This document shows positions 8,469 to 45,130 of a DNA stretch of 45,130 nucleotides, in pieces. The position numbers were made by a program, and so were the translations under genes. Each line of letters opens with the position of its first letter. The stretch's first letter is position 1. The stretch comes from Escherichia phage vB_EcoP_R4596: sequence record MK373771.1. The stretch is one strand, 5' to 3'. The notes beneath the pieces were generated by a model, which was given only the letters and a program-made list of their open reading frames with translations, made no database searches and was not told where the DNA came from.

Positions 8469-8629
8469 TGGAAATTATTAAACCAGTATTGAATATCGGT
8501 ATTGAGATCCTATTCATGCTTGTGATCGCAGATTATGCTGCACGATATGGATTCAAGAAAGCTGTGAAACTTATCGTTGCATCTGGTTTTCTTATGTCAA
8601 TGTTCTTTATTGTAACACGTCTTATCTAG
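8468..8629 (+). CDS. Small hydrophobic membrane protein (53 aa)
   Basis: ATG overlaps the primase stop (TAATG); translation MEIIKPVLNIGIEILFMLVIADYAA... is hydrophobic. Confidence 0.4.
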   Translation: MEIIKPVLNIGIEILFMLVIADYAARYGFKKAVKLIVASGFLMSMFFIVTRLI

Positions 8630-8646
8630 TGTATTTATCAGGGCTT

Positions 8647-8662
8647 GTCTCACATGTGAGAC
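8647..8662. repeat. 16-bp perfect palindrome GTCTCACATGTGAGAC (copy c)
   Basis: Read directly; flanks extend the potential stem to about 12 bp. Confidence 0.9.
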
Positions 8663-8701
8663 AGGCTCTTATTAAGTACATTAAATAACTGGAGATTGAT
8701 T

Positions 8702-9424
8702 ATGTATAAATTAGTATTGAATGCAGGTGATTATGTTCGTAACATCAATGAAGCCTCACGTCGTTATCGTTGCCGTGGTGTGGTTAGCTATGTAAGTGAG
8801 AACATGTACCATGTGGAGTACAGCAACGGCATTAAACAATCTTATCATAAGAAGTTAGCACATAACTACCTTGAGAAGATTGGCGAGACAAGCAATCAAT
8901 GCAAGTGTGTACATGATGAGGTTTGCGATAAGTGCAAACGTCAGGCAATTAAAGCCTTTACCTTTGCGCAACGTTATGGTTCTATGTATGGTGCTGGTCA
9001 CAAGACCGTTGCAGAAGCAGCTTGGAAGACATTACAGTTTGAGCATTCAAATGGACGACGCACCACAATTAAGAAAGAGCGCCGCAATGTCATCACTGGT
9101 AAGACTCAAAGTGAGATGATTAAGCAATGTGGCACTGCATTAGGTGTTACACAGTTCAATACACGTGCTCTAGGTAAATCTACAGGACAAGCTATGTTTA
9201 AGATTGGTGAAGCCATGATGCATCCAAATGTACCTGTGCGAATCATGGATGTTGACCATGCAATCACAGAGCACGGCACACCACGACGTGTAGTTAATAA
9301 GCATTTTGCAGACACTATAGAAGGTATTATCCTTAAGCAAGGTTTAAAGGGTCTTCATATCTTAAACGGTGAAGAGTTGCTGTACCTCCCTATTGTTACT
9401 GAAGAAACCTACGTGAATATCTAA
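8702..9424 (+). CDS. Hypothetical protein with Cys cluster CKCVHDEVCDKCK (241 aa)
   Basis: GGAGA Shine-Dalgarno 6 nt before ATG 8702; no family recognized. Confidence 0.6.
   Translation: MYKLVLNAGDYVRNINEASRRYRCRGVVSYVSENMYHVEYSNGIKQSYHKKLAHNYLEKIGETSNQCKCVHDEVCDKCKRQAIKAFTFAQRYGSMYGAGHKTVAEAAWKTLQFEHSNGRRTTIKKERRNVITGKTQSEMIKQCGTALGVTQFNTRALGKSTGQAMFKIGEAMMHPNVPVRIMDVDHAITEHGTPRRVVNKHFADTIEGIILKQGLKGLHILNGEELLYLPIVTEETYVNI
9303..9326 (+). promoter_or_regulatory. Candidate intragenic phage-RNAP promoter
   Basis: ATTTTGCAGACACTATAGAAGG; the 14-nt core GACACTATAGAAGG is identical to the consensus. Confidence 0.4.
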
Positions 9425-9434
9425 GGAGTTAATC

Positions 9435-9653
9435 ATGACTAAAGTATTAATTTATATGAGAGGTGCTAATAAGTGCTATGCAGTTGTAGCACCTGATGGA
9501 GTCAAGCCGTATGGTACTTCAAAAGGACTGGCATTAATAGGTGCTAGTCACAGTGCAAGTTTCCAAATGGAACTTTTTGGTCATTGGACTGAAAAAGAAT
9601 TCCGTGAGGAATTTAATGTAATTGGCAGCTTTATGGTGAAACATGCAAAATAA
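9435..9653 (+). CDS. Hypothetical protein (72 aa)
   Basis: AAGGAG Shine-Dalgarno; no motif recognized. Confidence 0.5.
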   Translation: MTKVLIYMRGANKCYAVVAPDGVKPYGTSKGLALIGASHSASFQMELFGHWTEKEFREEFNVIGSFMVKHAK

Positions 9654-9840
9654 ACACAGCCTTAAGATGTTTGATGGTCATGAAGACCTGCAAGCACAAA
9701 TTACTAACCAAGCCTTCCTGTTTGCACAGTTAACTATGGCTGAAGCAAAGAAGAACAGCCTTACTCGTGAGCAGATTATCAAGGAAGGTAGCCGTGGTGT
9801 TACTCGTCGTACCAAGAACCACAGAAGTGGTGCTCGCTAG
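9643..9840 (+). CDS. Hypothetical protein (65 aa)
   Basis: ORF overlapping the upstream gene end; weak ribosome-binding site. Confidence 0.35.
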   Translation: MQNKHSLKMFDGHEDLQAQITNQAFLFAQLTMAEAKKNSLTREQIIKEGSRGVTRRTKNHRSGAR

Positions 9841-9857
9841 TCGATAAGTCAAGGGTT

Positions 9858-9873
9858 GTCTCACGTGTGAGAC
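9858..9873. repeat. Palindrome variant GTCTCACGTGTGAGAC (copy d, 15/16)
   Basis: One substitution in the central tetranucleotide; flanks AAGGG...CCTTT can extend the stem. Confidence 0.85.
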
Positions 9874-9998
9874 AGCCTTTCATCATATTGATTGGAGGTG
9901 CATTATGCCACGTGATTATGATTCTGATTGGGACTACTATGACTCAATGAATCCAAAACCCGAACGTTCAGATGATTACTACGAAACAGAGGCAATGT

Positions 9999-12545
9999 AT
10001 GAAAACTATTGATTGGAAGAAGGAAGCAGAAGGGCGCATCCTAGTGATGGATGCTGAAAGTAAAGGTCTGCTTGATGCTATCCGCTACGGTCATCGTGAA
10101 GATGTACACATCATTTGCTGCATGGACTTGCTCACCACTGAGGAGTTCCTCTTCTTCGACCCATATGAGATGCGTGATCCTGAAGCGAGGGAGCGCCTGA
10201 AAGAATGGGAAGGCCATCAAGATGGAACCTTGGTTGATGGTGTTAATTTCCTGAAGCATTGTGAAGCTATTGTGTCGCAGAACTTCCTAGGATATGACGG
10301 TCTTCTCTTTGAGAAAGCGTTCCCTGATATCTGGAAAGGCTTTAATTATACCGAGAAGCGCGGCAAGGGCAGACTCCGTGCCGACCTGTGTCCTGTGCGA
10401 GTCATGGACACGCTGGTGATGAGCCGCCTGTTAAACCCCGATAGACGCCTTCCTCCGCAAGCATATGCCAAAGGTATGGGTAACGTCGCCCCTCATTCAA
10501 TTGAGGCGCACGGCATCCGTATAGGACGCTATAAGCCGGAGAATGAGGACTGGTCTAAACTAACTGACCACATGGTTCACCGTGTCCGCGAGGACGTGGC
10601 AATCGGTCGTGACCTTTTCCTGTGGCTGTACAATGGAGAGTGGACGGAGCATAAACGCCGTGGCGTGAATAAACGCACTGGCCTAGGCATTGAGACAGCC
10701 TTCCACATGGAGTCTATTGTGGCGCTGGAGATGAGCCGTCAGGCAGAGCGTGGATTCCGTCTGGATATTGACAAAGCACTAGCGCGATGCGAAGAACTGG
10801 ACGCTAAGATTGATGAGACAGTCGCAGCGTTCCGCCCTCACATGCCTATGCGTATCAAGTCTAAACCTTTTAAACCGGAAGAAAAGAATGAAGTATGCCA
10901 ACGCGCAAATGAGTATGGAGCTAGCAACAATATACCTACTGTCCTTGACCCCTCACACTTTCTTCATGCCGAGAGACGAGGAGATCGCAAGACAGTATGG
11001 AGTGTCACTACTAAGTCTGGTGATTGGTCGGCTAGCGTCAAGAAAGACTTTCCTCACCTTAGAGGAAACCGTAATGACACGCCAAGCATCAAGTGGATTG
11101 GCGCTTACTCGCCTGTTACTTTCGAAGAGATTCCCTTGGGTAACAGGGATACAGTTAAGCAAGTGCTCTATGATTATGGATGGAAAGGTGTTGAATTTAA
11201 CGATACCGAGCAAGCGCATCTCGATGAGCATGGCGTATTACCCAAACCTTGGAGTGGAAAGATAAATGAGAAATCCCTTACTTTATGGCAAGAAAGAGCC
11301 GCACGTGAAGGTAAAACAGTACCAGATTGGTGCTTGGGTATCGCTGCATGGTACATACTCGTATCCCGTCGTGGTCAGATCCTCAACCGTGGTGACGTTG
11401 AAGCCTTCGATCAGAAGGGGGCGTGGCCTTCGCAAGCTGGTGTACGAAAGTGTCGCGGCCTTATACCTGTAGCCTTTAACAAGGAATTAGGAATCAATGC
11501 GCAACAATACTACGAGAGGTATGGGTATTGGCCTACGTCTGACAAGGATGACGGAGAGTGGCGTGTGCCAGCTATTGCTATTAGTATTGGCACTTCTACG
11601 TTCCGTATGCGTCATCGCAATGTGGTTAATATTCCTGCCCGTGGCTTGTATCCTTTACGTGATTTATTCATAGCAGGTAAAGGTAAGCTAATCCTTGGTT
11701 GTGATGGTGCAGGTCTTGAACTACGTGTACTTTCTCACTTCATGAATGACCCTGAGTACCAAGATATTGTACTGCATGGCGATATACATACTCATAACCA
11801 GATGAAGGCGGGTCTTCCTAAGCGTGATATGGCGAAGACATTTATATATGCCTTCCTTTACGGCTCTGGTATAGCTAACCTTGCAGCAGTGTGCGGTGTT
11901 ACTGAGGAAGAAATGAAGGAAGTTGTGGCAAGATTCGAGATTGAATTACCATCCCTTGCACGTCTTCGTGAGAATGTTATCGCACAAGGCAACAAGTTTG
12001 GATACTTACAAGCACCTGACGGGCATTGGGGTCGCATCCGTATGTCTGGTGGAGAACTTAAAGAGCACACTATGCTTAATGTATTACTCCAAATGACTGG
12101 CTCTTTGTGTATGAAATACGCATTGGTCAAAGCGTTTGCAGTGATGCGCAAGGAAGGTGTGGCCTTAGATAGTATGGGACACCCTTGTGGTGTAGCTAAC
12201 GTGCACGATGAAATCCAGATGGAAGTACCTGAAGAAGAGGTATTGTATCTTAACTACGACCTACCTTTCACCTTAGAGGGGTTTGAAACAGAGAAGGCTG
12301 CTGTGAAAGCAGTATTCGATGCAGAGGAGAAACGTGTTCATGTGGATTCTGAAGGACGTATGTGGTCTGCTGCAAATCTCATTAGTGTTGATGCTGCTGC
12401 TGGTGTACTTCATTGCCAGCGTCGTTATCACCGCGCAGGGCATATCATTGCCGACGCCATGACTTGGGCTGGTCAGTATCTGAAGATGCGTTGCCCGATG
12501 GCAGGCGAGTATAAGATTGGCGCAAGCTGGAAGGAAACGCACTAG
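9999..12545 (+). CDS. DNA polymerase, family A with 3'-5' exonuclease domain (T7 gp5-like)
   Basis: Exo motif ILVMDAESKGL, motif B KTFIYAFLYGSG, motif C VANVHDEIQMEV; likely start ATG 9999 with GAGG ribosome-binding site (track begins at 9972). Confidence 0.93.
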   Translation: MKTIDWKKEAEGRILVMDAESKGLLDAIRYGHREDVHIICCMDLLTTEEFLFFDPYEMRDPEARERLKEWEGHQDGTLVDGVNFLKHCEAIVSQNFLGYDGLLFEKAFPDIWKGFNYTEKRGKGRLRADLCPVRVMDTLVMSRLLNPDRRLPPQAYAKGMGNVAPHSIEAHGIRIGRYKPENEDWSKLTDHMVHRVREDVAIGRDLFLWLYNGEWTEHKRRGVNKRTGLGIETAFHMESIVALEMSRQAERGFRLDIDKALARCEELDAKIDETVAAFRPHMPMRIKSKPFKPEEKNEVCQRANEYGASNNIPTVLDPSHFLHAERRGDRKTVWSVTTKSGDWSASVKKDFPHLRGNRNDTPSIKWIGAYSPVTFEEIPLGNRDTVKQVLYDYGWKGVEFNDTEQAHLDEHGVLPKPWSGKINEKSLTLWQERAAREGKTVPDWCLGIAAWYILVSRRGQILNRGDVEAFDQKGAWPSQAGVRKCRGLIPVAFNKELGINAQQYYERYGYWPTSDKDDGEWRVPAIAISIGTSTFRMRHRNVVNIPARGLYPLRDLFIAGKGKLILGCDGAGLELRVLSHFMNDPEYQDIVLHGDIHTHNQMKAGLPKRDMAKTFIYAFLYGSGIANLAAVCGVTEEEMKEVVARFEIELPSLARLRENVIAQGNKFGYLQAPDGHWGRIRMSGGELKEHTMLNVLLQMTGSLCMKYALVKAFAVMRKEGVALDSMGHPCGVANVHDEIQMEVPEEEVLYLNYDLPFTLEGFETEKAAVKAVFDAEEKRVHVDSEGRMWSAANLISVDAAAGVLHCQRRYHRAGHIIADAMTWAGQYLKMRCPMAGEYKIGASWKETH

Positions 12546-14864: not shown

Positions 14865-14870
14865 TTGATG

Positions 14871-14905
14871 CCCTGTCTGCCTTAGTGTAGGCAGGGTCTT
14901 TTGTG
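14871..14905 (+). terminator. Tphi-like stem-loop terminator
   Basis: CCCTGTCTG-CCTTAGTG-TAGGCAGGG then TCTTTTGTG; covaries with the capsid terminator at 23931. Confidence 0.7.
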
Positions 14906-16160: not shown

Positions 16161-16555
16161 AATCTTCAGAGGTGGCAGCTTATAAGAAAGAGCTTATGGA
16201 GAAGCAAGGTTGGAAGTGTCCTCTGTGCGGAGGCAGCCTTAAGGCAGTAAGTCCTATCAACCGTGTACTTGACCATGATCATGAGACAGGTTTCTGTCGT
16301 GCTGTTGTGTGTCGTGGCTGCAACGGTGCAGAAGGAAAGATTAAGGGTGTTATATCTGGCTACGGAAAGGCAGGTAATAACCGCTACTTCCAACTACAAT
16401 GGTTAGAACGCCTGTATAACTACTGGAAGTTGCATAGTACACCTCAGACAGATAAGTTATATCATAATCATAAAACGGAGGCAGAGAAACGAGAGGCTAA
16501 AAATCGTAAGGCTCGCCTTGCTTATGCAAGAAAGAAGGAGGTTAAGAGTGGCTAA
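16145..16555 (+). CDS. Endonuclease VII-like Holliday-junction resolvase (T4 gp49 family)
   Basis: CPLCGG...LDHDHETGFCRAVVCRGCNGAEGKIKG...LQWLERLYNYW matches the T4 endonuclease VII zinc/HNH-like core as recalled. Confidence 0.8.
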   Translation: MASKLKSSEVAAYKKELMEKQGWKCPLCGGSLKAVSPINRVLDHDHETGFCRAVVCRGCNGAEGKIKGVISGYGKAGNNRYFQLQWLERLYNYWKLHSTPQTDKLYHNHKTEAEKREAKNRKARLAYARKKEVKSG

Positions 16556-17555
16556 ACTTCGTAGCCTTTATAAAGACTCCGAGGTGCTTGATGCAATCGA
16601 GCAAGCTACCGACGAGAAAGGTAATGTTAACTATAATGAGATGGCGAAGGTTCTATCTAGCCACCCTGTGGGTAAGAAGATCACCCGTCAACTTGCTCGC
16701 TACTGGCATGGTCAATTCAAGAAGACCAAGAAGAATGGTGATTATTACCAGACTCTTCTGCAAGAGGATAAGCGTATCAAAGAAGAGCGTAAGCTCAGGA
16801 CTCCTGACCGCTACGAGGATTTGGCTATTGTACCATTGCCTGACTCGCCTCATCGAAGTGTACTGGTAATCCCTGATACTCATGCACCTTATGAGCACCC
16901 AGATACCTTAGAGTTCCTTGCAGCAGTGGCAGCACGTTATCGACCAGACACAGTGGTACATCTTGGAGATGAGGCAGATAAACATGCCCTGTCATTCCAT
17001 GATTCGGATCCAAATTTGGACAGTGCTGGCATGGAGTTAGAGAAGGCTCGTGTCTTCATGCACAAGTTGCACAAGATGTTCCCTGTGATGCGCCTGTGTC
17101 ATTCTAACCATGGCTCTATGCACTTCCGTAAGGCAAGCGCCAAGGGTATTCCAGTACAATATCTGCGTACCTACCGTGAAGTCTTCTTCCCGCAGGGAGG
17201 TGGCGACCAGTGGGACTGGCAGCATACGCATGTACTTGAGTTACCGAATGGCGAACAGGTGGCGTTCAAGCATCAACCTGCCGGCTCTGTCCTAGCAGAT
17301 GCAGCGCATGAGCGTATGAACCTTGTGTGTGGTCATCTGCATGGCAAGATGTCTGTGGAGTATGCACGTAATACCCATGAGCAGTATTGGGCTGTGCAGG
17401 GTGGCTGTCTAATTGATGAGTCATCTCGTGCATTTGCCTATGGTCGAGAGTCTAAGTACAAGCCAGCATTAGGTTGTGTGGTTATTCTGGATGGTGTGCC
17501 GCACATTGTCCCGATGCAGACCAATAGTGACAATCGCTGGATTGGTAAGATTTAG
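16548..17555 (+). CDS. Calcineurin-like metallophosphoesterase with about 100-aa N-terminal extension
   Basis: Motifs VIPDTHAP, HLGDEADK, HSNHG, CGHLHG; likely GTG 16548 start with AAGGAGG Shine-Dalgarno 7 nt upstream (track begins at 16518). Confidence 0.75.
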   Translation: MAKLRSLYKDSEVLDAIEQATDEKGNVNYNEMAKVLSSHPVGKKITRQLARYWHGQFKKTKKNGDYYQTLLQEDKRIKEERKLRTPDRYEDLAIVPLPDSPHRSVLVIPDTHAPYEHPDTLEFLAAVAARYRPDTVVHLGDEADKHALSFHDSDPNLDSAGMELEKARVFMHKLHKMFPVMRLCHSNHGSMHFRKASAKGIPVQYLRTYREVFFPQGGGDQWDWQHTHVLELPNGEQVAFKHQPAGSVLADAAHERMNLVCGHLHGKMSVEYARNTHEQYWAVQGGCLIDESSRAFAYGRESKYKPALGCVVILDGVPHIVPMQTNSDNRWIGKI

Positions 17556-17572
17556 TTGACACTATAGAACAA
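17550..17572 (+). promoter_or_regulatory. Phage-RNAP promoter, closest copy to the SP6 consensus
   Basis: ATTTAGTTGACACTATAGAACAAAGG. Confidence 0.7.
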
Positions 17573-17622
17573 AGGGTAGGTATTAGCTTGCCCTTGATTG
17601 TATAGTGAATGGAGGAATTAAT

Positions 17623-18060
17623 ATGTCACACTATGAATGTAATAAATGCCATAATCGCTATGATGATTGCACTTGTGATGCGCATAAAGATGAGAGTATT
17701 AAGCCAGAGCATCACCCTTTATGTGATTACATGTTGTCTAACTGTGTAGAGAAATGTGACTGTAAAACAGAGTGGTTTAAAGAAAGAATGGCTAAAATGG
17801 ATAAGAAGGAAGAAAAAACCAGTAATGATATGGTCACTAAACCCAAGCACTACGAGTTCTTCGATGGCGTAGAGGCAATTACTATCATCGCCCGTAGTAT
17901 GACCGAGAAGCAATTCGCGGGGTATTGCATGGGTAATGCTTTGAAGTATCGTCTGCGTGCAGGTAAGAAGTTCAATACTGAAGAAGACCTGAAGAAAGCA
18001 GACTACTACAAAGAGTTATTCCAGAAGCATCGTCACGAATGTATTGATGAGGATATTTGA
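17623..18060 (+). CDS. Cys/His-rich protein with DUF3310-like C-terminal domain
   Basis: N-terminus CNKCHNRYDDCTCDAH...CDYMLSNCVEKCDCK; C-terminal KPKHYEFFDGVEAITIIARSM...GNALKYRLRAGKK...DLKKADYY resembles DUF3310 as recalled; GGAGGA ribosome-binding site before ATG 17623. Confidence 0.5.
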   Translation: MSHYECNKCHNRYDDCTCDAHKDESIKPEHHPLCDYMLSNCVEKCDCKTEWFKERMAKMDKKEEKTSNDMVTKPKHYEFFDGVEAITIIARSMTEKQFAGYCMGNALKYRLRAGKKFNTEEDLKKADYYKELFQKHRHECIDEDI

Positions 18061-18061
18061 T

Positions 18062-19009
18062 ATGAATATCTTTGAGTTCCTAGGTCTTCCAGAAGACCAC
18101 CGCAACCACCCATTCATGCTGGTGAAGCATCGCGGTGAAGTTCCTGAGAAGAAATTAACTTTTCCATGTTATGCACAGGTGAAACGAGATGGAATATTCA
18201 GTGCTGTTGTGGTGCGCAATGATGGTGCTGTTGCCGTCTTTGGTCGTACTGGTAAGAAGCTCGCAAATGTTGAAGCCTTGGAAAAGACATTTAGTGTATT
18301 TCCTGTCGGGTTGTATCTTGGTGAGTTGCAATCTATGGCTGTTGGTGTTTATCTTGAAGCTCTGTCAGGAGTGGTAAACCCTAATCGTACAGAGCCACTT
18401 GACTTCATAGGCCAGCAGATTAAAGACAACCTGTATATCGACTTCTTCGATATGTTAACTATTAAGGCATTCCATGATGGATTCACTGATGTTTCTTATC
18501 TCAAACGTTACGATGCTTTACATCGTCGTATCGGCACTCATCTTAGCGGGTGCAACGCTATCCTTCCTATCACTCCTTGCCATAATGAGCGAGAAGTTGA
18601 AGCGTTTGCGCAAGAGCAAATAGATGCAGGACGTGAGGGTGCTGTATTCAAACTGGACTGCGATTATGAAGCAGGACACAAAGGTTATCGTCAGACTAAA
18701 GAAGTCCGTAAGGTAACTTATGACCTTACTTGTATTGGCTTTGAAGAAGGTAAAGGTAAATACAAAGGTAAGGTAGCTAACCTCATTTTCAAGTGGAAAG
18801 GGGGCAAGACAATCAAAGCTATGCTCGGTAAAGGGTGGACTCATGCAGATGCAGAACAGATGTTCCACGATATTAAACATGGCGGACGGTTGAATGTCAT
18901 TGGTAAAATCTTTGAAGTCAAAGGTCTTCAGGATTCAAGCAAGGGCAACATTCGTCTGCCCAAAGCGGGAGAATTAAGACATGACAAAGATGAACCAGAT
19001 TTCTTTTGA
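18062..19009 (+). CDS. ATP-dependent DNA ligase
   Basis: Adenylation motif AQVKRDGIF (KxDG) near the N-terminus; GAGGA ribosome-binding site; ATG 18062 (track begins at TTG 18044). Confidence 0.85.
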   Translation: MNIFEFLGLPEDHRNHPFMLVKHRGEVPEKKLTFPCYAQVKRDGIFSAVVVRNDGAVAVFGRTGKKLANVEALEKTFSVFPVGLYLGELQSMAVGVYLEALSGVVNPNRTEPLDFIGQQIKDNLYIDFFDMLTIKAFHDGFTDVSYLKRYDALHRRIGTHLSGCNAILPITPCHNEREVEAFAQEQIDAGREGAVFKLDCDYEAGHKGYRQTKEVRKVTYDLTCIGFEEGKGKYKGKVANLIFKWKGGKTIKAMLGKGWTHADAEQMFHDIKHGGRLNVIGKIFEVKGLQDSSKGNIRLPKAGELRHDKDEPDFF

Positions 19010-19196
19010 TAGCATGAAGGCAACTCGTGCAGTTGAGGTAGCAGAAGCTATCTTTGAAACTTTACCCTGCGGCATGGAAGTGCCATATACTTTACTTGCT
19101 GATGCAGAAGAACTTGGTCTTTCTGTAGAAGCTATCCAAGAGAAGGTTGACGAATTATATGGTACAGACGAAGAAGAAACCGACGATTTCATTTGA
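18981..19196 (+). CDS. Small acidic protein (71 aa)
   Basis: GGGAGA ribosome-binding site; overlaps the ligase 3' end; acidic tail ...DEEETDDFI. Confidence 0.45.
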   Translation: MTKMNQISFDSMKATRAVEVAEAIFETLPCGMEVPYTLLADAEELGLSVEAIQEKVDELYGTDEEETDDFI

Positions 19197-19325
19197 AGGA
19201 ATGGAGATGCTTGAGATGATTCTCAAGCCTTCTTCTCCGAAGGTGACTAAGACTCATGAAGAGTTAATCGTAGATGAAGTGAAGCGTTACATTATGGATT
19301 GTGTCAAGGCACAACTGGTAGTCCA

Positions 19326-19787
19326 ATGATACGTCAAGCATCTTTCTTAGATATACCTGAGATTATTAATCTAGGCGACAAGTATGTAGAAGAGGAAGTT
19401 AAGGTAGTAGCACACCACTCTCCTTCATGGAATGCAGAACAAAGCGCAGCAAACCTGTGTGCATCTCTTGTCCGAGATGATTTATTCTTATGGGTTGCTG
19501 TAGATGAGGGAAGCATTGTAGGATTCCTATGGGCTGGGTATCATGACTTAGCACCTTGGACACCAGTGCGTGTTGCATCTGATATTCTTTTCTACATCGT
19601 ACCAGAGAAGCGTGGCACTCTCTTAGGAATGAGACTTATCAAAGCCTATAAGCAATGGGCTTTTGAGAAGGAATGCGCTGAAGTGAGACTGTCTATTGCC
19701 TCTGGTATCAATGAAGAGCGTGTCGGGCGTATGTATGAGCGGTTAGGCTTTGAGACGTTCGGCACTGTGTATAACCTGAAACTTTAA
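19326..19787 (+). CDS. GNAT-family N-acetyltransferase-like protein
   Basis: Pattern VGFLWAGYHD...RGTLLGMRLIKAYKQWAFEKECAEVRL...YERLGFE typical of GNAT folds; start uncertain (ATG 19326, or 19299 per track). Confidence 0.6.
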   Translation: MIRQASFLDIPEIINLGDKYVEEEVKVVAHHSPSWNAEQSAANLCASLVRDDLFLWVAVDEGSIVGFLWAGYHDLAPWTPVRVASDILFYIVPEKRGTLLGMRLIKAYKQWAFEKECAEVRLSIASGINEERVGRMYERLGFETFGTVYNLKL

Positions 19788-19796
19788 GGAGGCAAT

Positions 19797-20006
19797 ATGG
19801 GTGTCGTGAAGAAGGCATTTAAAGCAATTGGTCTTGCACCTGAGACGCCGAAAATTGAGGCGGCTAAGACTCCGGCACAACAGTTAGCGCGTGAACCGGA
19901 GACTACGGCAGAGGATATTACATTAGGCCAAGATGATAGCGCAACGGCTGCGGCACGTGGTAAGCGTGGACTGATTCGTCCAGTGGCATCGAGCTTAGGG
20001 GTTTAA
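19797..20006 (+). CDS. Small virion-associated protein, possibly gp6.7-like (69 aa)
   Basis: AAGGAGG Shine-Dalgarno; located just before the portal gene; composition loosely like T7 gp6.7. Confidence 0.45.
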   Translation: MGVVKKAFKAIGLAPETPKIEAAKTPAQQLAREPETTAEDITLGQDDSATAAARGKRGLIRPVASSLGV

Positions 20007-20205
20007 TATGATGCAAGACACCGACCTTGAGTATGGTCTCCGGCACAACAGTTAGCGCGTGAACCGGAGACTACGGCAGAGGATATTACATTAGGCCAAG
20101 ATGATAGCGCAACGGCTGCGGCACGTGGTAAGCGTGGACTGATTCGTCCAGTGGCATCGAGCTTAGGGGTTTAATATGATGCAAGACACCGACCTTGAGT
20201 ATGGT
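19870..20205. repeat. Perfect tandem duplication, 2 x 168 bp (19870-20037 and 20038-20205)
   Basis: Direct reading; the unit spans the 3' end of the 69-aa gene and the first 10 codons of the portal gene. Confidence 0.95.
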
Positions 20206-21726
20206 GGAAAGCGGTCGAAGATACCTAAGTTGTGGGAGAAGCTATCTACTAAGCGCAATCCTTTCATGGACAGGGCAAAGCACTATGCGAGGTTGACTTT
20301 GCCATACCTCATGAATGAAGAGGGAGACAACAATACTTCTCAGAATGGGTGGCAAGGTGTAGGTGCGCAGGCCACTAACCACTTAGCTAACAAGTTAGCA
20401 CAAGTTCTCTTCCCTGCTCAACGCTCTTTCTTCCGAGTTGACTTGACGGCAAAAGGGGAGAAGATATTAAACAATAGAGGTCTTAAGAAGACCAAATTAG
20501 CTACGCTGTTTGCTCAAGTAGAGACTGCTGCTATGAAGCAACTAGAGCAGCGGCAGTTCCGCCCAGCGGTGGTGGAGTGCTTCAAGCATTTGATTGTTGC
20601 AGGTAACTGTATGCTATACAAGCCAAGCAAGGGTGCAATCAGTGCTATACCTATGCATCACTATGTAGTTAATCGAGATGCTAATGGGGAACTGCTGGAT
20701 ATTATCTTACTACAAGAGAAGGCGCTAAAGACATTCGACCCTGCAACTCGCATGGCTATTGAAGTAGGCATGAAAGGTAAGAAGTGCAAAGACAGTGATA
20801 ATGTAAAACTCTACACACACGCCAAGTATGAGGGTGAAGGTTTTTGGGAATTAAATCAATCAGCAGATGATATTCCTATTGGTAAATCTAGCAGAATCAA
20901 GGCTGATAAACTCCCATTCATCCCCCTTACTTGGAAGAGGTCGTATGGTGAAGATTGGGGTCGCCCTCTTGCAGAGGATTATTCTGGAGATTTATTCGTA
21001 ATCCAATTCCTGTCTGAAGCGGTTGCGCGTGGCGCTGCTTTGATGGCAGACATTAAATACCTGATTCGTCCAGGTGCTCAGACAGATGTAGACCACTTTG
21101 TTAACTCAGGAACAGGCGAAGTAATCACTGGTGTGGAAGAGGACATCCATATCGTACAACTAGGCAAGTATGCAGACCTAACACCAATAAGTGCTGTACT
21201 AGAGGTTTATACCAGACGCATCGGCGTAGTCTTTATGATGGAGACTATGACACGACGAGATGCAGAACGTGTAACTGCTGTAGAGATACAGCGAGATGCT
21301 CTTGAGATTGAGCAGAACATGGGTGGCGTATACTCACTCTTTGCTACGACTATGCAGACACCCGTGGCTATGTGGGGTTTGCTTGATGCCGGAGACTCTT
21401 TCACCAGTGACCTAGTAGATCCTGTTATCATCACAGGTATTGAAGCATTAGGTCGCATGGCAGAGTTGGATAAGCTGGCTAACTTCGCTCAGTATATGGC
21501 ATTACCTATGAGTTGGCCTGAGCCAGTACAGGCAGCAGTGAACTGGCCTGATTATATGGATTGGGTTCGTGGTCAGATCTCCGCTGAACTTCCATTCCTA
21601 AAATCAGAAGAGCAGATGAAGAAAGAGCAAGCACAGATGGCACAAGCACAGCAAGAGCAGATGCTTAATGAAGGAGTAGCTAAAGCTGTACCTGGTGTCA
21701 TTCAACAAGAACTTAAGGAGGCGTAA
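20176..21726 (+). CDS. Portal (head-tail connector) protein (T7 gp8-like)
   Basis: WQGVGAQATNHLANKLAQVLFP matches T7 gp8 WQAVGARGLNNLASKLMLALFP as recalled; expected size and position. Confidence 0.9.
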   Translation: MMQDTDLEYGGKRSKIPKLWEKLSTKRNPFMDRAKHYARLTLPYLMNEEGDNNTSQNGWQGVGAQATNHLANKLAQVLFPAQRSFFRVDLTAKGEKILNNRGLKKTKLATLFAQVETAAMKQLEQRQFRPAVVECFKHLIVAGNCMLYKPSKGAISAIPMHHYVVNRDANGELLDIILLQEKALKTFDPATRMAIEVGMKGKKCKDSDNVKLYTHAKYEGEGFWELNQSADDIPIGKSSRIKADKLPFIPLTWKRSYGEDWGRPLAEDYSGDLFVIQFLSEAVARGAALMADIKYLIRPGAQTDVDHFVNSGTGEVITGVEEDIHIVQLGKYADLTPISAVLEVYTRRIGVVFMMETMTRRDAERVTAVEIQRDALEIEQNMGGVYSLFATTMQTPVAMWGLLDAGDSFTSDLVDPVIITGIEALGRMAELDKLANFAQYMALPMSWPEPVQAAVNWPDYMDWVRGQISAELPFLKSEEQMKKEQAQMAQAQQEQMLNEGVAKAVPGVIQQELKEA

Positions 21727-22634
21727 TGTCTTTTGAAATTATTAATGAACCTGTAAGTCAGTCTGACGTTACTGAATCTAAGGAGGCTGCTGATGTTACT
21801 ACTACCGACACTGATTCTACTGTTGATTCTTCTGGCAGCGATGTACAAGCTGACACAGGCAGTACAAATGTACAAGACACCGGAGGAGCTGATATTGGAG
21901 AAGATGCAGGACAAGGAGAAGCATCTAGTGGATCGTATGATAAACCTGAGCCAGATGGTTCCTCGGACGAAGATGTAAGATTCTTCTTTGGCGAACAAGA
22001 AGTAGAGATTGAAATCCCTGACGATGTATCCTCTGCCTTGAAAGAGAAAGGCATTGATGCAATGCAGGTAGCCAAGGAGCTTTACGGTGAAGGCGGCAAG
22101 TTTGAGCTTACGGAAGAGACAAAACAGAAGCTGTATGATGCATTTGGCAAGTTCGCAGTAGACGCTTATTTGAATGGACTGAAAGCATCTAACGAGGCAT
22201 TCCTAATTAAATCTGAAGCTCAAGCTAAAGAAGCTAAAGCAGCAGATGCCCAACGCTTTACCGATATTGCATCGGAAGTTGGAGGGGAAGAAGGTTGGTC
22301 ACGACTAGAAGAGTGGGCGCTAGAAACGCTGTCTGATGAAGAACTAGCAGCATTCAATGCCGTGATGGCCTCAGGTAATCAGTATCTGCAACAGTATGCT
22401 GTGCGTGAGCTGGAAGGTCGCCGTAAGCAAGCACAGGGTGATGACAAGCCATCCTTGATTGAGCCGTCAGCACCTGCGAAGGCTAATGAGGAGAACAGCC
22501 CACTGACGAGAGATCAGTATGTCCGAGCTATCGCAACTCTTAGCCAGAAATATGGTAATGACCGTAAAGCTATGGCGGAGGCTCAGGCGAAACTTGACGC
22601 TCGCCGTCGTGCTGGTATGGCTCGCGGACTGTAA
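21726..22634 (+). CDS. Capsid assembly scaffolding protein (gp9-like)
   Basis: Position between portal and capsid; highly acidic N-terminal half; start overlaps the portal stop. Confidence 0.75.
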   Translation: MSFEIINEPVSQSDVTESKEAADVTTTDTDSTVDSSGSDVQADTGSTNVQDTGGADIGEDAGQGEASSGSYDKPEPDGSSDEDVRFFFGEQEVEIEIPDDVSSALKEKGIDAMQVAKELYGEGGKFELTEETKQKLYDAFGKFAVDAYLNGLKASNEAFLIKSEAQAKEAKAADAQRFTDIASEVGGEEGWSRLEEWALETLSDEELAAFNAVMASGNQYLQQYAVRELEGRRKQAQGDDKPSLIEPSAPAKANEENSPLTRDQYVRAIATLSQKYGNDRKAMAEAQAKLDARRRAGMARGL

Positions 22635-22640
22635 TTCAGT

Positions 22641-22663
22641 ATTTACTGGACACTATAGAAGGG
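22641..22663 (+). promoter_or_regulatory. Phage-RNAP promoter upstream of the capsid gene
   Basis: ATTTACTGGACACTATAGAAGGGAGA followed by 5' hairpin GGGAGA-AAAC-TCTCCC. Confidence 0.8.
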
Positions 22664-22712
22664 AGAAAACTCTCCCTAGTTATCAATTTGATTTATAAGG
22701 AGATTATAATAC

Positions 22713-23921
22713 ATGTCTACACCGAACACTCTGACTAACGTTGCTGTGTCCGCATCTGGTGAGGTTGACAGCCTTCTTATTGAGAAGTTTAATGGTAAGG
22801 TAAACGAGCAGTACCTGAAAGGTGAGAACATTCTGTCCTACTTTGATGTACAGACGGTAACTGGTACTAACACGGTTAGCAATAAATATTTAGGTGAAAC
22901 TGAGTTGCAGGTGTTAGCACCGGGTCAGTCACCTAATGCTACTCCAACTCAGGCCGATAAAAACCAGTTGGTAATTGATACCACTGTGATCGCCCGTAAC
23001 ACCGTGGCACACATCCACGACGTACAGGGTGACATCGACAGCCTTAAGCCTAAGTTGGCTATGAACCAAGCCAAGCAACTGAAGCGTCTGGAAGACCAGA
23101 TGGCAATCCAGCAGATGCTGTTAGGTGGCATCGCTAACACCAAAGCAAAGCGTAACAAACCTCGTGTAAAAGGACACGGCTTCTCTATCAACGTTAACGT
23201 GACTGAAAGTGAAGCACTGGCTAACCCGCAGTATGTCATGGCTGCTGTAGAATATGCTCTGGAGCAGCAGCTTGAACAGGAAGTGGATATCTCTGATGTA
23301 GCGATCCTGATGCCGTGGAAATTCTTCAACTCGCTGCGTGACGCAGACCGCATTGTAGATAAGACTTACACTATTAGTCAGTCCGGTGCTACTATCAGTG
23401 GCTTTGTTCTGTCTTCCTACAACTGCCCTGTTATCCCGTCTAACCGATTCCCGACATTTGTACAGAGTGCTCCACATCACTTACTGTCTAACGAAGATAA
23501 CGGTTATCGTTATGACCCTACCGCAGAGATGAACGGCGCTGTAGCTGTGCTGTTTACTGCTGATGCATTGCTGGTAGGTCGCACCATTGAAGTAACAGGT
23601 GACATCTTCTATGAGAAGAAAGAGAAGACTTACTATATTGATACCTTCATGGCTGAAGGTGCAATCCCTGATCGTTGGGAAGCTGTGTCTGTAGTTACCA
23701 CTAAACGCAACGGAACATCTGGTGATGCTGAAGGTACAGGCGCTGACCACGCAACCGTACTGGCTCGTGCACAACGTAAGGCTGTCTATGTCAAGACCGC
23801 AGGCGCTGCGGCTGCATTCTCTGCTGCACCAGTAGGTATCCAAGCAGAAGACCTAGTAGCAGCTGTACGTGCTGTAATGGCAAATGACATCAAGCCGACT
23901 GCACTTAAACCTGCTGAGTAA
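22713..23921 (+). CDS. Major capsid protein (402 aa)
   Basis: Position after scaffold, own strong promoter and terminator, AAGGAG ribosome-binding site; no direct sequence match recalled. Confidence 0.8.
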   Translation: MSTPNTLTNVAVSASGEVDSLLIEKFNGKVNEQYLKGENILSYFDVQTVTGTNTVSNKYLGETELQVLAPGQSPNATPTQADKNQLVIDTTVIARNTVAHIHDVQGDIDSLKPKLAMNQAKQLKRLEDQMAIQQMLLGGIANTKAKRNKPRVKGHGFSINVNVTESEALANPQYVMAAVEYALEQQLEQEVDISDVAILMPWKFFNSLRDADRIVDKTYTISQSGATISGFVLSSYNCPVIPSNRFPTFVQSAPHHLLSNEDNGYRYDPTAEMNGAVAVLFTADALLVGRTIEVTGDIFYEKKEKTYYIDTFMAEGAIPDRWEAVSVVTTKRNGTSGDAEGTGADHATVLARAQRKAVYVKTAGAAAAFSAAPVGIQAEDLVAAVRAVMANDIKPTALKPAE

Positions 23922-23930
23922 TAACCTATG

Positions 23931-23966
23931 CCCTATCTACCTTGCGTAGGTAGGGTTCTTTTGTTT
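23931..23966 (+). terminator. Tphi-like terminator after the capsid gene
   Basis: CCCTATCTA-CCTTGCG-TAGGTAGGG then TTCTTTTGTTT. Confidence 0.75.
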
Positions 23967-23976
23967 AGGAGGGTTC

Positions 23977-24717
23977 ATGCCTTTAATTCAAAATACAAGT
24001 GATGTTGGACGTATCATGGCTGAGGCTTCCTTCAATATCATTGATAGCAAACTAGAAGCAGTGAACCTGTGTATGCGAGCTATCGGTCGTGAGGGTGTGG
24101 ACTCTCTTGACTCTGGCGACTTAGATGCTGAAGATGCTAATAAGATTATTGATATTGTCTCACAACGTTTCCAATACAATAAGGGCGGTGGTTGGTGGTT
24201 TAACAGGGAACCTAACTGGTTACTTAAACCTGACACAAATGGTGAAGTGAACATGCCAAACAATTGTCTTGCTGTTCTCCAATGCTACGCCCTAGGTGAA
24301 CGTAAAGTGCCTATGACTATACGAGCAGGCAAGTTGTATTCTGTTTGGAATCACACTTTCGACATGTCAAAGTACGTTAATCAGGATGGGCGTATTAGGC
24401 TGACTCTGGTAACATTACTACCTTTTGAGCACCTACCTGCAAGTGTTATGCAAGCCATTGCCTATCAAGCTGCTGTAGAGTTTATTGTGTCTAAGGATGC
24501 TGATAAGACTAAGTTACAAGCACACCAGCAGATCGCAGCACAGCTTATGATTGATGTTCAGTCAGAGCAGTCTTCTCAGAAGAGACTCAATATGCTTGTA
24601 CATAATCCTACTCAGCGCAACTTCGGAATCATGGCAGGTGGCTCTCAGAATGTACCAGCGTTCTCCTATTCACCTTATGACACTTACCCTGTAAGGCCGT
24701 GGGAGGTTGATAGATAA
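23977..24717 (+). CDS. Tail tubular protein A (gp11-like)
   Basis: N-terminal pattern AIGREGVDSLDSGD.DAEDANKIIDIV resembles T7 gp11; position. Confidence 0.8.
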   Translation: MPLIQNTSDVGRIMAEASFNIIDSKLEAVNLCMRAIGREGVDSLDSGDLDAEDANKIIDIVSQRFQYNKGGGWWFNREPNWLLKPDTNGEVNMPNNCLAVLQCYALGERKVPMTIRAGKLYSVWNHTFDMSKYVNQDGRIRLTLVTLLPFEHLPASVMQAIAYQAAVEFIVSKDADKTKLQAHQQIAAQLMIDVQSEQSSQKRLNMLVHNPTQRNFGIMAGGSQNVPAFSYSPYDTYPVRPWEVDR

Positions 24718-27119
24718 TGGAAGTACAAGGTTCTTTAGGTCGCCAGATTCAAGGTATCAGCCAGCAGCCAGCAGCAGTAAGGTTGGATGGGCAGTGTACC
24801 GATATGATTAATATGATCCCAGATGTAGTAAATGGAACACAATCTCGCATGGGTAGCACTCATATTGCAAAGCTAATGGAAGTAGGCAGTGACAATATGG
24901 CAACACATCATTATAGAAGAGGTGATGGGGTAGAAGAGTATTTCTTTGTCATGAAGAAAGGAAGTGTTCCTGAAATCTTCGATAAACAAGGAAGGAAGTG
25001 TGGGGTGACTTCTCAGGATGCACCTATGACTTATTTAGCGGAAGTTGTAAACCCTAGAGAAGATGTGCAATTCATGACGATTGCAGATGTAACCTTTATG
25101 CTTAACCGTAGGAAGATAGTCAAAGCGAGGGCAGAGCGATCTCCGAAGGTTGGTAATCAAGCCATCGTGTTTAGTGCATATGGTCAGTATGGTACAACCT
25201 ATAAAATCCTTATCAATGGTAGTGTAGCTGCTACATACAAGACATCCGTAGGCGGGATACCTGAAGATGTTGAAACTATTAGGACAGAGAACATTGCATC
25301 TAAGTTGTATGAAGAGTTACAGAAGTGGAGTGGGATAGCGGATTATACTATACAACGAGATGGTACTAGTATATTCATTGAGAAGAAGGACGGATCATCC
25401 TTTGAAATATCCACGGAAGACGGTGCTAAAGGTAAAGACTTGGTAGCTATTAAGAACAAAGTGACATCTACTGATCTCTTGCCATCCAGAGCACCAGCAG
25501 GGTATAAGGTGCAAGTGTGGCCTACTGGTAGTAAACCTGAATCCAGATACTGGCTGGAAGCTGAACCAAAAGACGGAAACCTAGTATCTTGGAAAGAAAC
25601 CATTGCCGCCGATGTATTGCTTGGCTTTGATAAAAGCACCATGCCTTACATCATTGAGCGCACAGGTTTTACTGGAGATATTGCTCAGTTTAGAATCCGT
25701 CAAGGCGATTGGGAGGACAGGAAGGTAGGTGATGACTTAACTAACCCTATGCCATCATTCATTGATGAGGAAGTACCACAGGCGTTAGGCGGGATGTTCA
25801 TGGTGCAGAATAGATTATGTGTCACCGCTGGTGAAGCAGTTGTGGCTACAAGGACTTCTCATTTCTTTGACTTCTTCCGCTTCTCCTCTGTGTCCGAGGT
25901 TGCAACAGACCCTTTTGATATCTTCTCAGATGCAAGTGAAGTGTATCAATTGAAGCACGCAGTGACCCTAGATGGAGCTACAGTGTTATTCTCTGATAAC
26001 TCTCAATTCATACTTCCCGGCGACAAAGTGTTAGAGAAATCTAATGTGCTATTAAAGCCTGCAACAACCTTTGAAGTTGACAATAAGGTAGCACCTGTAG
26101 CTACAGGTGAGGCTGTGATGTTCGCAACAAGCGAAGGTGCATACTCAGGTGTACGCGAGTTCTATACCGACTCATACAGTGACACTAAGAAAGCACAGGC
26201 AGTCACCAGTCATGTGAATAAGTTGATTGAAGGAAATATAACTCACATGGTAGCCAGCACTAACATAAATAGGCTACTAGTAGTTACAGACAGGGATCCT
26301 AATATCGTATACTGCTATGATTGGTTATGGCAGGGAACGGAAAAGGTTCAATCTGCATGGCATAAATGGGTTTGGCCTAGAGATACGCTGATACGCTCTA
26401 TGTTCTATTCTTCAGAGACACTCTACCTTTTAGTGGAAAGAGGTGGTACAGGTTTATATCTTGAAGTTATGGATATGGGCGATGCATTAACCTACGGGCT
26501 TGTTGATAGAATAAGACTAGACAGGCAGGCAGAGCTTATCTTCACTTATGACTCCTACAACTCTCAGTGGGTATCCGACCACTTACCTTGGACACCTACT
26601 GACGCTTCTCTCTTGGATTGTGTTATCACGACAGGTTGGCCTGCATACATTGGAGGTGCATTTGGTTTTGAATACGATTCGACAAATAACAGGCTGATAA
26701 CTACTTTTGATTTAGCCGATGAGCAGTCTAATGCAGTAGTAGTAGTAGGGCAGTTATATCAACAAGAATTTGAACCAACTCAGGTGGTTATCAGAGATAA
26801 TCAGGATAGGGTGTCTTACATAGATGTACCGGTAGTGGGATTAGTTCATCTTAATTTAGATAAGTATCCTGATTTTCAAGTGAATATCAGAAACCTTAAG
26901 AGTGGAAAGACACGTAAGGTATTAGCCTCTAACCGTAAAGGTGGTGCACTGAATAACATTGTTGGTTATGTTAAACCAGAAGAAGGTTCTTTCAAATTTC
27001 CACTCAGGTCACTTAGCACTGATACGGTTTATCGTATTATTGTCAACTCCCCTCATACATTCCAACTTAGGGATATTGAGTGGGAAGGGACATACAACCC
27101 AACTAAGAGGAGGGTATAA
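24717..27119 (+). CDS. Tail tubular protein B (gp12-like, 800 aa)
   Basis: Size and position match T7 gp12; start overlaps the upstream stop. Confidence 0.85.
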   Translation: MEVQGSLGRQIQGISQQPAAVRLDGQCTDMINMIPDVVNGTQSRMGSTHIAKLMEVGSDNMATHHYRRGDGVEEYFFVMKKGSVPEIFDKQGRKCGVTSQDAPMTYLAEVVNPREDVQFMTIADVTFMLNRRKIVKARAERSPKVGNQAIVFSAYGQYGTTYKILINGSVAATYKTSVGGIPEDVETIRTENIASKLYEELQKWSGIADYTIQRDGTSIFIEKKDGSSFEISTEDGAKGKDLVAIKNKVTSTDLLPSRAPAGYKVQVWPTGSKPESRYWLEAEPKDGNLVSWKETIAADVLLGFDKSTMPYIIERTGFTGDIAQFRIRQGDWEDRKVGDDLTNPMPSFIDEEVPQALGGMFMVQNRLCVTAGEAVVATRTSHFFDFFRFSSVSEVATDPFDIFSDASEVYQLKHAVTLDGATVLFSDNSQFILPGDKVLEKSNVLLKPATTFEVDNKVAPVATGEAVMFATSEGAYSGVREFYTDSYSDTKKAQAVTSHVNKLIEGNITHMVASTNINRLLVVTDRDPNIVYCYDWLWQGTEKVQSAWHKWVWPRDTLIRSMFYSSETLYLLVERGGTGLYLEVMDMGDALTYGLVDRIRLDRQAELIFTYDSYNSQWVSDHLPWTPTDASLLDCVITTGWPAYIGGAFGFEYDSTNNRLITTFDLADEQSNAVVVVGQLYQQEFEPTQVVIRDNQDRVSYIDVPVVGLVHLNLDKYPDFQVNIRNLKSGKTRKVLASNRKGGALNNIVGYVKPEEGSFKFPLRSLSTDTVYRIIVNSPHTFQLRDIEWEGTYNPTKRRV

Positions 27120-27844
27120 TGGCAGTAATGGCAACAGTAGGATCAAGCCTAGCCAGTATGTTCTCCAGTAGTGCAGGTGCTGCGGCTGCTAGTAGTGCTG
27201 CTGGTAGTGCCGCCGCTGGAAGTGGTGGTGTACTTGGCTCTATCGGAAGTTTCTTAGGTGGAAGCTCTGCTGGCTTTTCTAATGCAGGTTTGTTGTCTGC
27301 TGGACTACAAGGCTTAAACTTACTAGGCGGTCTATTCGGTGGACGAGATACCGCTAAGGCTATGCAGAAAGCACAAGAAGAAGAATGGAGACAAAGGCTA
27401 GAAGCCACACGTGAAGCCTATTCTTCTGTGGCAGATGCAGAGCGGGCTGCTGCAAAGCAATATCATTCTGACTTCCTTAGTAATCAAATTTCACTGATGC
27501 AGCAACGAGCGCAAGTTGCAGTAATGGCAGGCGCTACTGGAACAGGTGGTAGCTCCATCACATCCATGCTCAATGATTTGACGGCAGAAGGCGGTCGCAA
27601 TCAGTCAACCATTATAGATAATTATGAGAATCAGCAAATCAACTTTGCCAACCAGTTGAAGTCTATTCAACGCAGTGGACAGATGCAGATGCGAACGTTT
27701 GACAAACCTTCCGCTTTGGGTACTTTGGTGAAAGGAATACCAAGCATTGCATCTTCCTATGTCACCGGAAGTAAAGCAGGTATGGCACTTGGCAAGGCTA
27801 TCACTGAGTCTCGTACTTATTCATCAGGAACTAGAGGAGTTTAA
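27119..27844 (+). CDS. Internal virion protein (gp13/gp14-like), Gly/Ala/Ser-rich N-terminus
   Basis: Position after tail tube B; overlapping start and stop codons. Confidence 0.65.
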   Translation: MAVMATVGSSLASMFSSSAGAAAASSAAGSAAAGSGGVLGSIGSFLGGSSAGFSNAGLLSAGLQGLNLLGGLFGGRDTAKAMQKAQEEEWRQRLEATREAYSSVADAERAAAKQYHSDFLSNQISLMQQRAQVAVMAGATGTGGSSITSMLNDLTAEGGRNQSTIIDNYENQQINFANQLKSIQRSGQMQMRTFDKPSALGTLVKGIPSIASSYVTGSKAGMALGKAITESRTYSSGTRGV

Positions 27845-44845: not shown

Positions 44846-45130
44846 TCTCGCCCTCGCCCTCGCCGGGTTGTCCCCATAGGGTAGCCTGAGGGAATCCGTC
44901 TCCGACGGGCAGGGCTGATGTACTCTTTGTACTAGCTTAGTAGTACACAAGGGCTGGCCTTTTGTTTTGCCGTGTACTAGTAAGGTGGAACGCTGTAGAC
45001 GGCCTAGGACGGCCTAGGGAATGGCTTAGTGGCGGACAAGGTGATTGCCTTAGTGAAGCCTCTTAGCGCATTCCTGAGGCCATTCAGGGCGTTTATGAGG
45101 TATTGACAGGGTGTGCGTGGGTGTGGGCTA
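44846..45130. repeat. Right direct terminal repeat (identical to 1-285)
   Basis: Direct reading; truncated by the window end. Confidence 0.9.

Follow-up and report, generated by a model that had tools for sequence, protein, structure and literature searches.

A conserved, predicted GNAT acetyltransferase encoded ahead of the portal gene in the SP6-like podophage vB_EcoP_R4596

Why should a podophage keep an acetyltransferase gene among the genes for its virion proteins? The question is raised by an open reading frame of Escherichia phage vB_EcoP_R4596 (sequence record MK373771.1), for which an earlier note had proposed, on a motif pattern, a GNAT-like acetyltransferase. In the current study, we analyzed the whole stretch of 45,130 nucleotides (the window), which is a complete Vectrevirus-like (SP6/K1E-type) podophage genome with terminal direct repeats of 285 nt, a gene order of the SP6/K1E type, and about a dozen SP6-type promoters (ATTTACTGGACACTATAGAAG). 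Over the region of interest (18000-21800), identity is 98% with Raoultella phage vB_Ro_P3a and 85 to 97% with many other Vectrevirus records. We found that the GNAT assignment is borne out by HMM searches, by a predicted structure, and by motif alignment. The fixed place of the gene beside genes for ejected proteins suggests that it takes part in particle assembly or in host takeover, and gene position is, as evidence of function, only circumstantial.

The coding sequence lies at 19326..19787 (plus strand, stop included), exactly where the note had placed it, and is recognized by its reading frame, by Pfam and PHROG matches, by the AlphaFold2 model, and by dN/dS. It runs from an ATG at 19326 through 153 codons to a TAA at 19785-19787. 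A mechanical list of open reading frames also offers an upstream TTG at 19299; because the homologues all begin with “MIR,” we take the ATG to be the true start. This ATG shares bases with the TGA that ends the small ORF before it (ATGA, 19326-19329), and the stop codon is in turn overlapped by the Shine-Dalgarno sequence of the following gene (AAGGAGG, 19786-19792). Pairwise dN/dS values against relatives range from 0.025 to 0.17, with synonymous sites near saturation, and indicate strong purifying selection.

The gene had also been described as lying between the ligase and portal genes. That order is right, but it adjoins neither of them (ligase, 18062..19009; portal, 20176..21726). As checked by Pfam and PHROG, the local order runs from a metallophosphoesterase gene (16548..17555) through a DUF3310 “kinase” gene (17623..18060) to the ATP-dependent DNA ligase gene. 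The interval between ligase and GNAT holds two small ORFs: one with no function assigned (18981..19196), and one that belongs to PHROG 6507, again with no function assigned (19201..19329, plus strand). The latter is annotated as a 42-amino-acid CDS in vB_Ro_P3a, and its true start may be an ATG at 19159. The interval between GNAT and portal holds a gene for a 69-amino-acid protein resembling T7 gp7.3 (19797..20006, plus strand) and a 168-bp duplication. The portal (head-tail connector) gene itself (plus strand; Pfam PF12236, E = 1.3e-91) is followed by the scaffold (21726..22634) and capsid (22713..23921) genes and, further along, by the nozzle gene (24717..27119) and a gp14-like gene (27119..27844). 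The nearest upstream SP6-type promoter-like site (GATTTAGTTGACACTATAGAACAA; 17547..17580, plus strand; repeat families D2, D3, and D7) and the next one downstream (22634-22666, ahead of the capsid gene) flank this region, and no strong terminator-like hairpin occurs between 14870-14897 and 23930-23956. Given this placement of promoter-like sites and terminator-like hairpins, the GNAT gene is presumably cotranscribed with the kinase-like, ligase, gp7.3-like, portal, and scaffold genes.

When the protein was searched against GNAT profiles, two Pfam models scored above their gathering cutoffs, namely, PF00583 (Acetyltransf_1; E = 9.4e-10, 39.2 bits against a cutoff of 20.7) and PF13508 (Acetyltransf_7; E = 2.3e-8, 34.7 bits against a cutoff of 27). 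It also matches PHROG 1249, “acetyltransferase,” with an E value of 5.6e-54. An AlphaFold2 model computed with 56 homologues as input (mean pLDDT, 92; pTM, 0.87) has the elements of the GNAT fold (beta1-alpha1-alpha2-beta2-4-alpha3-beta5-alpha4-beta6) in the expected order through alpha4; the final strand or strands are left unassigned by DSSP in this monomer model. Foldseek returned 424 matches to the PDB at E values of ≤0.001, and all 50 of those listed are GNAT-type structures, with TM scores of approximately 0.65 to 0.78. Among the matches listed, the closest solved structure is DpA, a polyamine acetyltransferase of Acinetobacter baumannii (PDB 8a9o and 8a9n), by profile (E = 1.8e-11) as well as by fold (Foldseek E = 7.5e-10; TM, 0.76). 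DpA is, however, a bacterial chromosomal enzyme with only about 18% identity to the phage protein. It is followed by aminoglycoside (AAC(6')-type), phosphinothricin/methionine-sulfoximine-type, SSAT, and RimI-type enzymes, at approximately 15 to 23% identity.

An acetyl-CoA-binding motif, whose absence from a profile alignment the earlier note had named as the sign of a wrong assignment, is present as the loop from R96 to G101. This loop (motif A, the acetyl-CoA pyrophosphate loop; R96-G97-T98-L99-L100-G101, 19611..19628, plus strand) aligns with RGQGIG of human SSAT2 and RRQGSA of DpA in the profile alignment. R96 and G101 fit positions 1 and 6 of the consensus Q/R-x-x-G-x-G/A, and the sole deviation is at position 4, which is Leu and not Gly; this position is variable across the family, which has a conserved Gly at position 2 (G97) instead. 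Across 219 family representatives, R96 is conserved in 98%, G97 in 87%, and Gly or Ala at position 101 in 90%. Within strand beta4 (19581..19595, plus strand), singled out by conservation and by alignment with the GNAT protein Rac of phage LUZ19, Asp or Glu at position 86 and Tyr or Phe at position 90 are kept in 92% and 99% of these representatives, respectively. From its spacing to motif A, D86 may serve as the general base, a placement for which we take E173 of Gcn5 to be the model. The candidate general acid is Y137 (19734..19736, plus strand), in motif B (N129...Y137..L-G-F), where the family has Tyr in 73% and Phe in 17% of the representatives. Its counterpart in the alignment is a Tyr of DpA, at which the other deposited DpA sequence (8a9n) has Phe. 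W111 is 95% conserved, and R3, D9, G66, and G141 are 94 to 98% conserved. Y90 aligns with Y89 of Rac, one of the positions at which mutation rendered Rac inactive (PMC7552054). Judged from these features of its sequence, the product is very probably an active acetyl-CoA-dependent N-acetyltransferase.

Both the gene and its annotation were already in the public record, so that the assignment is correct but not new, and as annotation it adds nothing. The gene is labeled “acetyltransferase” in vB_Ro_P3a (RoP3a_026) and “acetyltransferase” or “GNAT family N-acetyltransferase” in other relatives, as it is in PHROG 1249, and a 99%-identical protein cluster is already held in a public protein collection. 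The literature on the SP6/K1E-type gene yielded annotation-level mentions only, with no experiment on a family member. Matches to the protein were found by tblastn in 238 phage records, whose hosts span Escherichia, Vibrio, Pseudomonas, and Roseobacter; at E values of ≤0.001, it is related to 5,940 representative proteins. In Vectrevirus and other SP6-like phages (vB_Ro_P3a, Escherichia phage LL11, SP6, and Salmonella phage BP12B), the protein is 72 to 99% identical, and the gene has equal length and the same neighbors.

The position of the gene is conserved well beyond this group. Using a 12-sequence alignment as the query, we collected 62 viral contigs encoding relatives of the protein. Where identity is at least 34%, the portal gene lies 192 to 292 nt downstream of the GNAT gene without exception (41 of 41 contigs), and a gp7.3-like ORF was detected between the two by tblastn in 39 of the 41. 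The same order (GNAT, gp7.3-like, portal) is found in the Colwellvirinae phage Njord, in Vibrio phage phiVP140, and in metagenomic contigs. The 69-amino-acid protein matches PHROG 1320 (E = 7.2e-10), as does T7 gp7.3 (E = 9.7e-30). It has basic termini, a center rich in Ala, Gln, and Pro, and an acidic stretch, features which it has in common with gp7.3-like factors, and a preprint on phage Ar-KM assigns the small pre-portal protein to the ejection apparatus, as a gp7.3-like “wedge” (10.64898/2026.05.18.726046). By eye, the protein had been taken as gp6.7-like; we abandoned this, since PHROG groups it with T7 gp7.3.

A perfect tandem duplication of 2 × 168 bp (19870-20205) takes in the 3' part of the gp7.3-like gene and extends 30 nt into the portal gene. 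Neither gene is disrupted, and 169 nt separate the two. The GNAT-to-portal gap is 392 nt here, against 192 to 292 nt in the 41 related contigs, and among the SP6-like relatives only the R4596 copy of the GNAT gene is followed by the duplication. Neither the six closest phage records nor the 41 related contigs contain the duplication junction. The duplication may be a recent event or an assembly artifact.

Distant members of the family, of the type found in roseophage SIO1, occupy a second slot. In these phages the gene directly follows the nozzle gene, which is the slot of T7 gp13 (“IVP-A”), and precedes IVP-B, whereas in R4596 it precedes the gp7.3-like and portal genes; in both types (SIO1, VpV262, and the cobaviruses on the one hand and R4596 on the other), it resides in the virion module beside ejection-protein genes. 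In SIO1 itself, the family gene has the tail appendage gene on one side and gp26.1/gp26 on the other. In two viral contigs (L109 and L111), it is directly 3' of a gene matching Pfam Phage_nozzle, and in another (L011) it precedes genes for proteins of 160, 678, and 1,482 amino acids, the last with Zeta_toxin, AAA_33, and ParB-like domains. SIO1 p29 belongs to the same sequence family as the R4596 protein (27% identity over 97% of the length by tblastn). A profile made from SP6-like sequences only (at least 53% identity) gives 59.5 bits with SIO1 p29 and 69 to 75 bits with the post-nozzle gene products of L109 and L111; given these scores, we regard the genes in the IVP-A slot as true members of the PHROG 1249 family by sequence. 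Predicted structures close to that of the R4596 protein were also obtained for the GNAT proteins of CRP-4 (TM, 0.90) and VpV262 (TM, 0.77). In the R4596 genome, the IVP-A slot is empty, the nozzle gene ending at 27119 and the gp14-like gene starting at 27119.

What is known of the second slot comes from other phages. Hardies et al. (2016; PMC4819975) described the gene in the IVP-A slot of phiRIO-1-like phages as a nonstructural gene of the acetyltransferase family and noted that T7 IVP-A, which is required for morphogenesis and is not kept in virions, matches acetyltransferases by HHpred. The same link was drawn for the cobaviruses by Bischoff et al. (2019; PMC6775973). T7 gp13 (PF11090) thus occupies the slot used by distant members of the family, which the R4596 gene does not. 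We tried gp13 as a homologue and set it aside: the R4596 protein has no PF11090 match in the Pfam search, hhalign against gp13 was not significant with single sequences (probability, 3.9%) or with a six-sequence gp13 family (6.5%), and the alignment with that family is limited to an N-terminal “IRPxxxxD” stretch. Since hhalign was not significant, the link to gp13 is one of slot and of the published HHpred statement.

The reading that we favor, tentatively and at a likelihood well short of even, is that the R4596 gene encodes a nonvirion enzyme that acetylates proteins in connection with assembly of the ejection apparatus, after the manner of IVP-A. We favor it because the family resides in the virion module in two slots, because the genes in the IVP-A slot are true kin, and because that slot is empty here. 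A single-domain GNAT would be made from a transcript that runs from the last DNA metabolism genes into portal and scaffold. Its family is podophage-wide and is always placed in the virion module beside genes for ejected proteins, either ahead of the gp7.3-like “wedge” and portal genes (R4596, SP6, K1E, and Njord, with related Vibrio phages) or immediately behind the nozzle gene (SIO1-type phages). Acting during morphogenesis as an enzyme that does not stay in the particle, it would transfer the acetyl group of acetyl-CoA, bound on the R96...G101 loop, to an amine on one of the phage's ejection or assembly proteins, among which the gp7.3-like protein and the gp14-16-like internal proteins are candidates. 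It would then be the functional counterpart, in the SP6 group, of the nonstructural IVP-A assembly factor. Several observations weigh against this reading. Rac, the sole pre-portal GNAT that has been tested, targets host and not virion proteins (PMC7552054); the closest solved structures acetylate small amines; and the hhalign comparison with the gp13 family gave nothing significant. Moreover, T7-like Pseudomonas phages have both a pre-portal GNAT and gp13, so that the two slots are not simple alternatives.

Rac leads to a different possibility, which we consider somewhat unlikely and which is not mutually exclusive with an IVP-A-like role, namely, that the R4596 enzyme acetylates host proteins as part of host takeover. 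Rac (LUZ19 gp28; 157 amino acids) has a GNAT fold and a size similar to that of the 153-amino-acid R4596 protein, and it is the only phage GNAT in the pre-portal slot that has been studied experimentally. The LUZ19 order (GNAT, small virion protein, portal, scaffold) is identical to that of R4596, and relatives of Rac, which we gathered from phage records and viral contigs (a large protein database gave a single cluster), share the slot in MR8, phi-2, pphageB21, and the T7-like Ghunavirus Henninger. Ceyssens et al. (2020; PMC7552054) showed that Rac triggers cleavage of the C-terminal domain of the host RNA polymerase alpha subunit and that it increases protein lysine acetylation and depends on its acetyl-CoA pocket. 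Rac-type GNATs are not among the virion proteins listed for phiPsa17 (PMC4517105) or Ar-KM (10.64898/2026.05.18.726046). With an expanded Rac family, hhalign gives a probability of 94.9% and an E value of 4.5e-8 over 100 columns, and PHROG 1249 is the sole further PHROG match of Rac (E = 4.9e-4). The likeness nevertheless is at the level of the superfamily only. Rac belongs to a different PHROG (3986), which the R4596 protein does not match at E values of ≤0.01; BLASTP between the two proteins gave nothing significant (E = 1.1); the SP6-type profile gives at most 14 bits with Rac-family proteins; and the Rac profile gives at most 23.7 bits within the R4596 GNAT family, compared with 21.9 bits for the best unrelated GNAT in the PDB. 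Because the profile scores are at superfamily level and BLASTP is null, we rejected Rac as an orthologue or family member and treat it as a positional analogue and fellow GNAT. Its phenotype also is a narrow one: alpha cleavage is confined to Phikmvvirus and is absent with the LKA1 homologue (PMC7552054), and Rac had no effect in P. putida.

The likeness to DpA, which ranks first among the solved relatives on profile and on fold, raises the possibility that the substrate is a polyamine or other small cellular amine, the enzyme serving, for example, to tune polyamine levels while DNA is packaged or to weaken a host response that relies on polyamines. Motif A and the motif B Tyr of DpA align with those of the phage protein, and a cationic substrate would fit well with two invariant acidic residues, D9 and E23, on the acceptor side near the N terminus. 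We think this unlikely, however, since the small-amine enzymes are only about 18% identical, overall GNAT likeness is no predictor of substrate, RimI-type protein acetyltransferases score almost equally, and the substrate-specific NCBIfam models are all far under their cutoffs; a metabolic role also would leave residence in the virion module, in two slots, without explanation. The earlier note had named antibiotics among possible targets, a suggestion that finds no support: as a resistance enzyme for aminoglycosides or other drugs the protein was rejected, with the AAC(6') NCBIfam models giving 14 to 23 bits against cutoffs of 140 to 320 (the best, 23 bits against 140). It is very improbable, in our estimation, that the protein is a noncatalytic chaperone or scaffold with a GNAT fold that aids virion assembly, as T7 gp13 and gp7 may be. 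The Pfam entry for gp13 (PF11090) does call it a probable scaffold, and T7 gp7 (“host range,” PHROG 2746), directly upstream of gene 7.3, matches the placement of the R4596 gene, has a degenerate motif A, and is weakly connected with the Rac family (colinear by hhalign, with an E value of 9.4e-4 and a probability of 22%; Henninger GNAT against PHROG 2746, E = 1.4e-5; T7 gp7 against PHROG 3986, E = 0.025), a tie that we regard as suggestive only. Homology of gp7 to the R4596 family itself was rejected (hhalign E = 0.25). Neither gp13 nor gp7, however, has a recognizable acetyl-CoA motif, unlike the R4596 protein, in whose family R96, G/A101, D/E86, and Y/F90 are kept at 90 to 99%, which would be unexpected for a pure scaffold. 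An anti-defense or toxin-type GNAT, either AcrVA5-like or an aminoacyl-tRNA acetyltransferase of the TacT/AtaT kind, seems to us extremely improbable. Phage GNATs with anti-defense roles do exist, among them AcrVA5 (cited in PMC7552054). Yet the best PADLOC match has an E value of 0.011 (12.7 bits), on which a defense or anti-defense identity was dismissed; no GNAT toxin (TacT, AtaT, or KacT type) or AcrVA5 chain is found among the 46 PDB profile matches or the top 50 fold matches listed; and there is no antitoxin-like partner gene, the neighbors being phage ORFs of PHROG 6507 and PHROG 1320. Retention of the gene across phages of hosts from Escherichia to Roseobacter likewise argues against a patchily distributed defense system as its target.

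A bolder and quite unlikely proposal would join several of these systems. The pre-portal GNAT of SP6/K1E-like phages may be the enzymatically active form of IVP-A, with acetylation of the gp7.3-like wedge or of the internal ejection proteins by this nonvirion enzyme required for an infectious ejection apparatus, and T7 gp13, T7 gp7, and Rac may be diverged descendants, degenerate or retargeted, of one virion-module GNAT.

The interest of the locus lies in the fact that a GNAT enzyme is fixed in the virion module of many podophage lineages, beside the genes for ejected proteins. If ejection proteins are indeed modified, as in the IVP-A-like reading that we favor, the infectivity of podoviruses would depend on an undescribed enzymatic maturation step. 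If instead the enzyme acts as Rac does, SP6-like coliphages would possess an acetylation-based host shut-off. Either reading could be put to a direct test in an E. coli phage that is easy to work with.

The window begins and ends with identical direct repeats of 285 nt (positions 1-285 and 44846-45130), which makes it the whole phage genome; terminal repeats of 285 nt fit the expectation for a complete linear genome of the T7/SP6 type. A sequence resembling the promoter of an SP6-type phage RNA polymerase (consensus ATTTACTGGACACTATAGAAG) occurs in 13 copies on the plus strand of the window, at positions 2079, 6111, 6297, 8413, 9300, 12727, 13190, 14421, 17551, 22638, 38007, 40112, and 42465. 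None of the 13 lies between 17551 and 22638, from which we infer that the predicted acetyltransferase (GNAT) gene would belong to a single transcription unit together with the ligase and portal genes. Within the small ORF immediately upstream of the GNAT gene there is a weak hairpin with an 8-bp stem (GCTTGAGA-TGAT-TCTCAAGC, 19209-19228) and a pyrimidine-rich tail behind it, picked up in a terminator scan. The palindrome TGTCTCACATGTGAGACA is present seven times in the window (6095, 6278, 7078, 8646, 9857, 14392, and 30804); several copies lie immediately 5′ of phage promoters, and three of the seven are contained in a 67-nt repeat (8621, 9832, and 30779). These palindromes could serve as hairpin, processing, or terminator elements.

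Across the junction of the gp7.3-like and portal genes we found a perfect tandem duplication of 2 × 168 bp (19870-20205; 100% identity between copies), the unit of which corresponds to 56 codons. It takes in the final 137 nt of the gp7.3-like gene with its stop codon, as well as the initial 30 nt of the portal gene. Despite the duplication, both genes are uninterrupted; they are spaced 169 nt apart and would abut without it. The duplication was found neither in the six closest phage records nor in 41 related viral contigs, and it could be either a genuine recent event or an assembly artifact.

In SIO1-type phages, distant members of the GNAT family occupy the slot of T7 gp13 (IVP-A); in the window this slot holds no gene, the nozzle (tubular tail B) gene (24717-27119) abutting the T7 gp14-like gene (27119-27844). 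In a metagenomic podophage contig (L011), a large putative internal virion protein (7973-10450) is encoded two genes downstream of the GNAT, and its Pfam Zeta_toxin, AAA_33, and ddrB-ParB domains suggest an ejected effector.

Like the Rac-type GNATs, the T7 "host range" protein gp7 is encoded directly upstream of gp7.3. When T7 gene 7 (L010:1631-2032) was compared with the GNAT gene of Henninger (L003:2471-2917) and the Rac gene of LUZ19 (L002:7535-8008), the profiles showed a weak, colinear link (hhalign E value, 9.4e-4), with PHROG cross-hits at E values of 1.4e-5 and 0.025. D-x-H-x-G and C-terminal R/K-rich motifs are common to T7 gp7 and these GNATs. The T7 protein may represent a GNAT that has degenerated.
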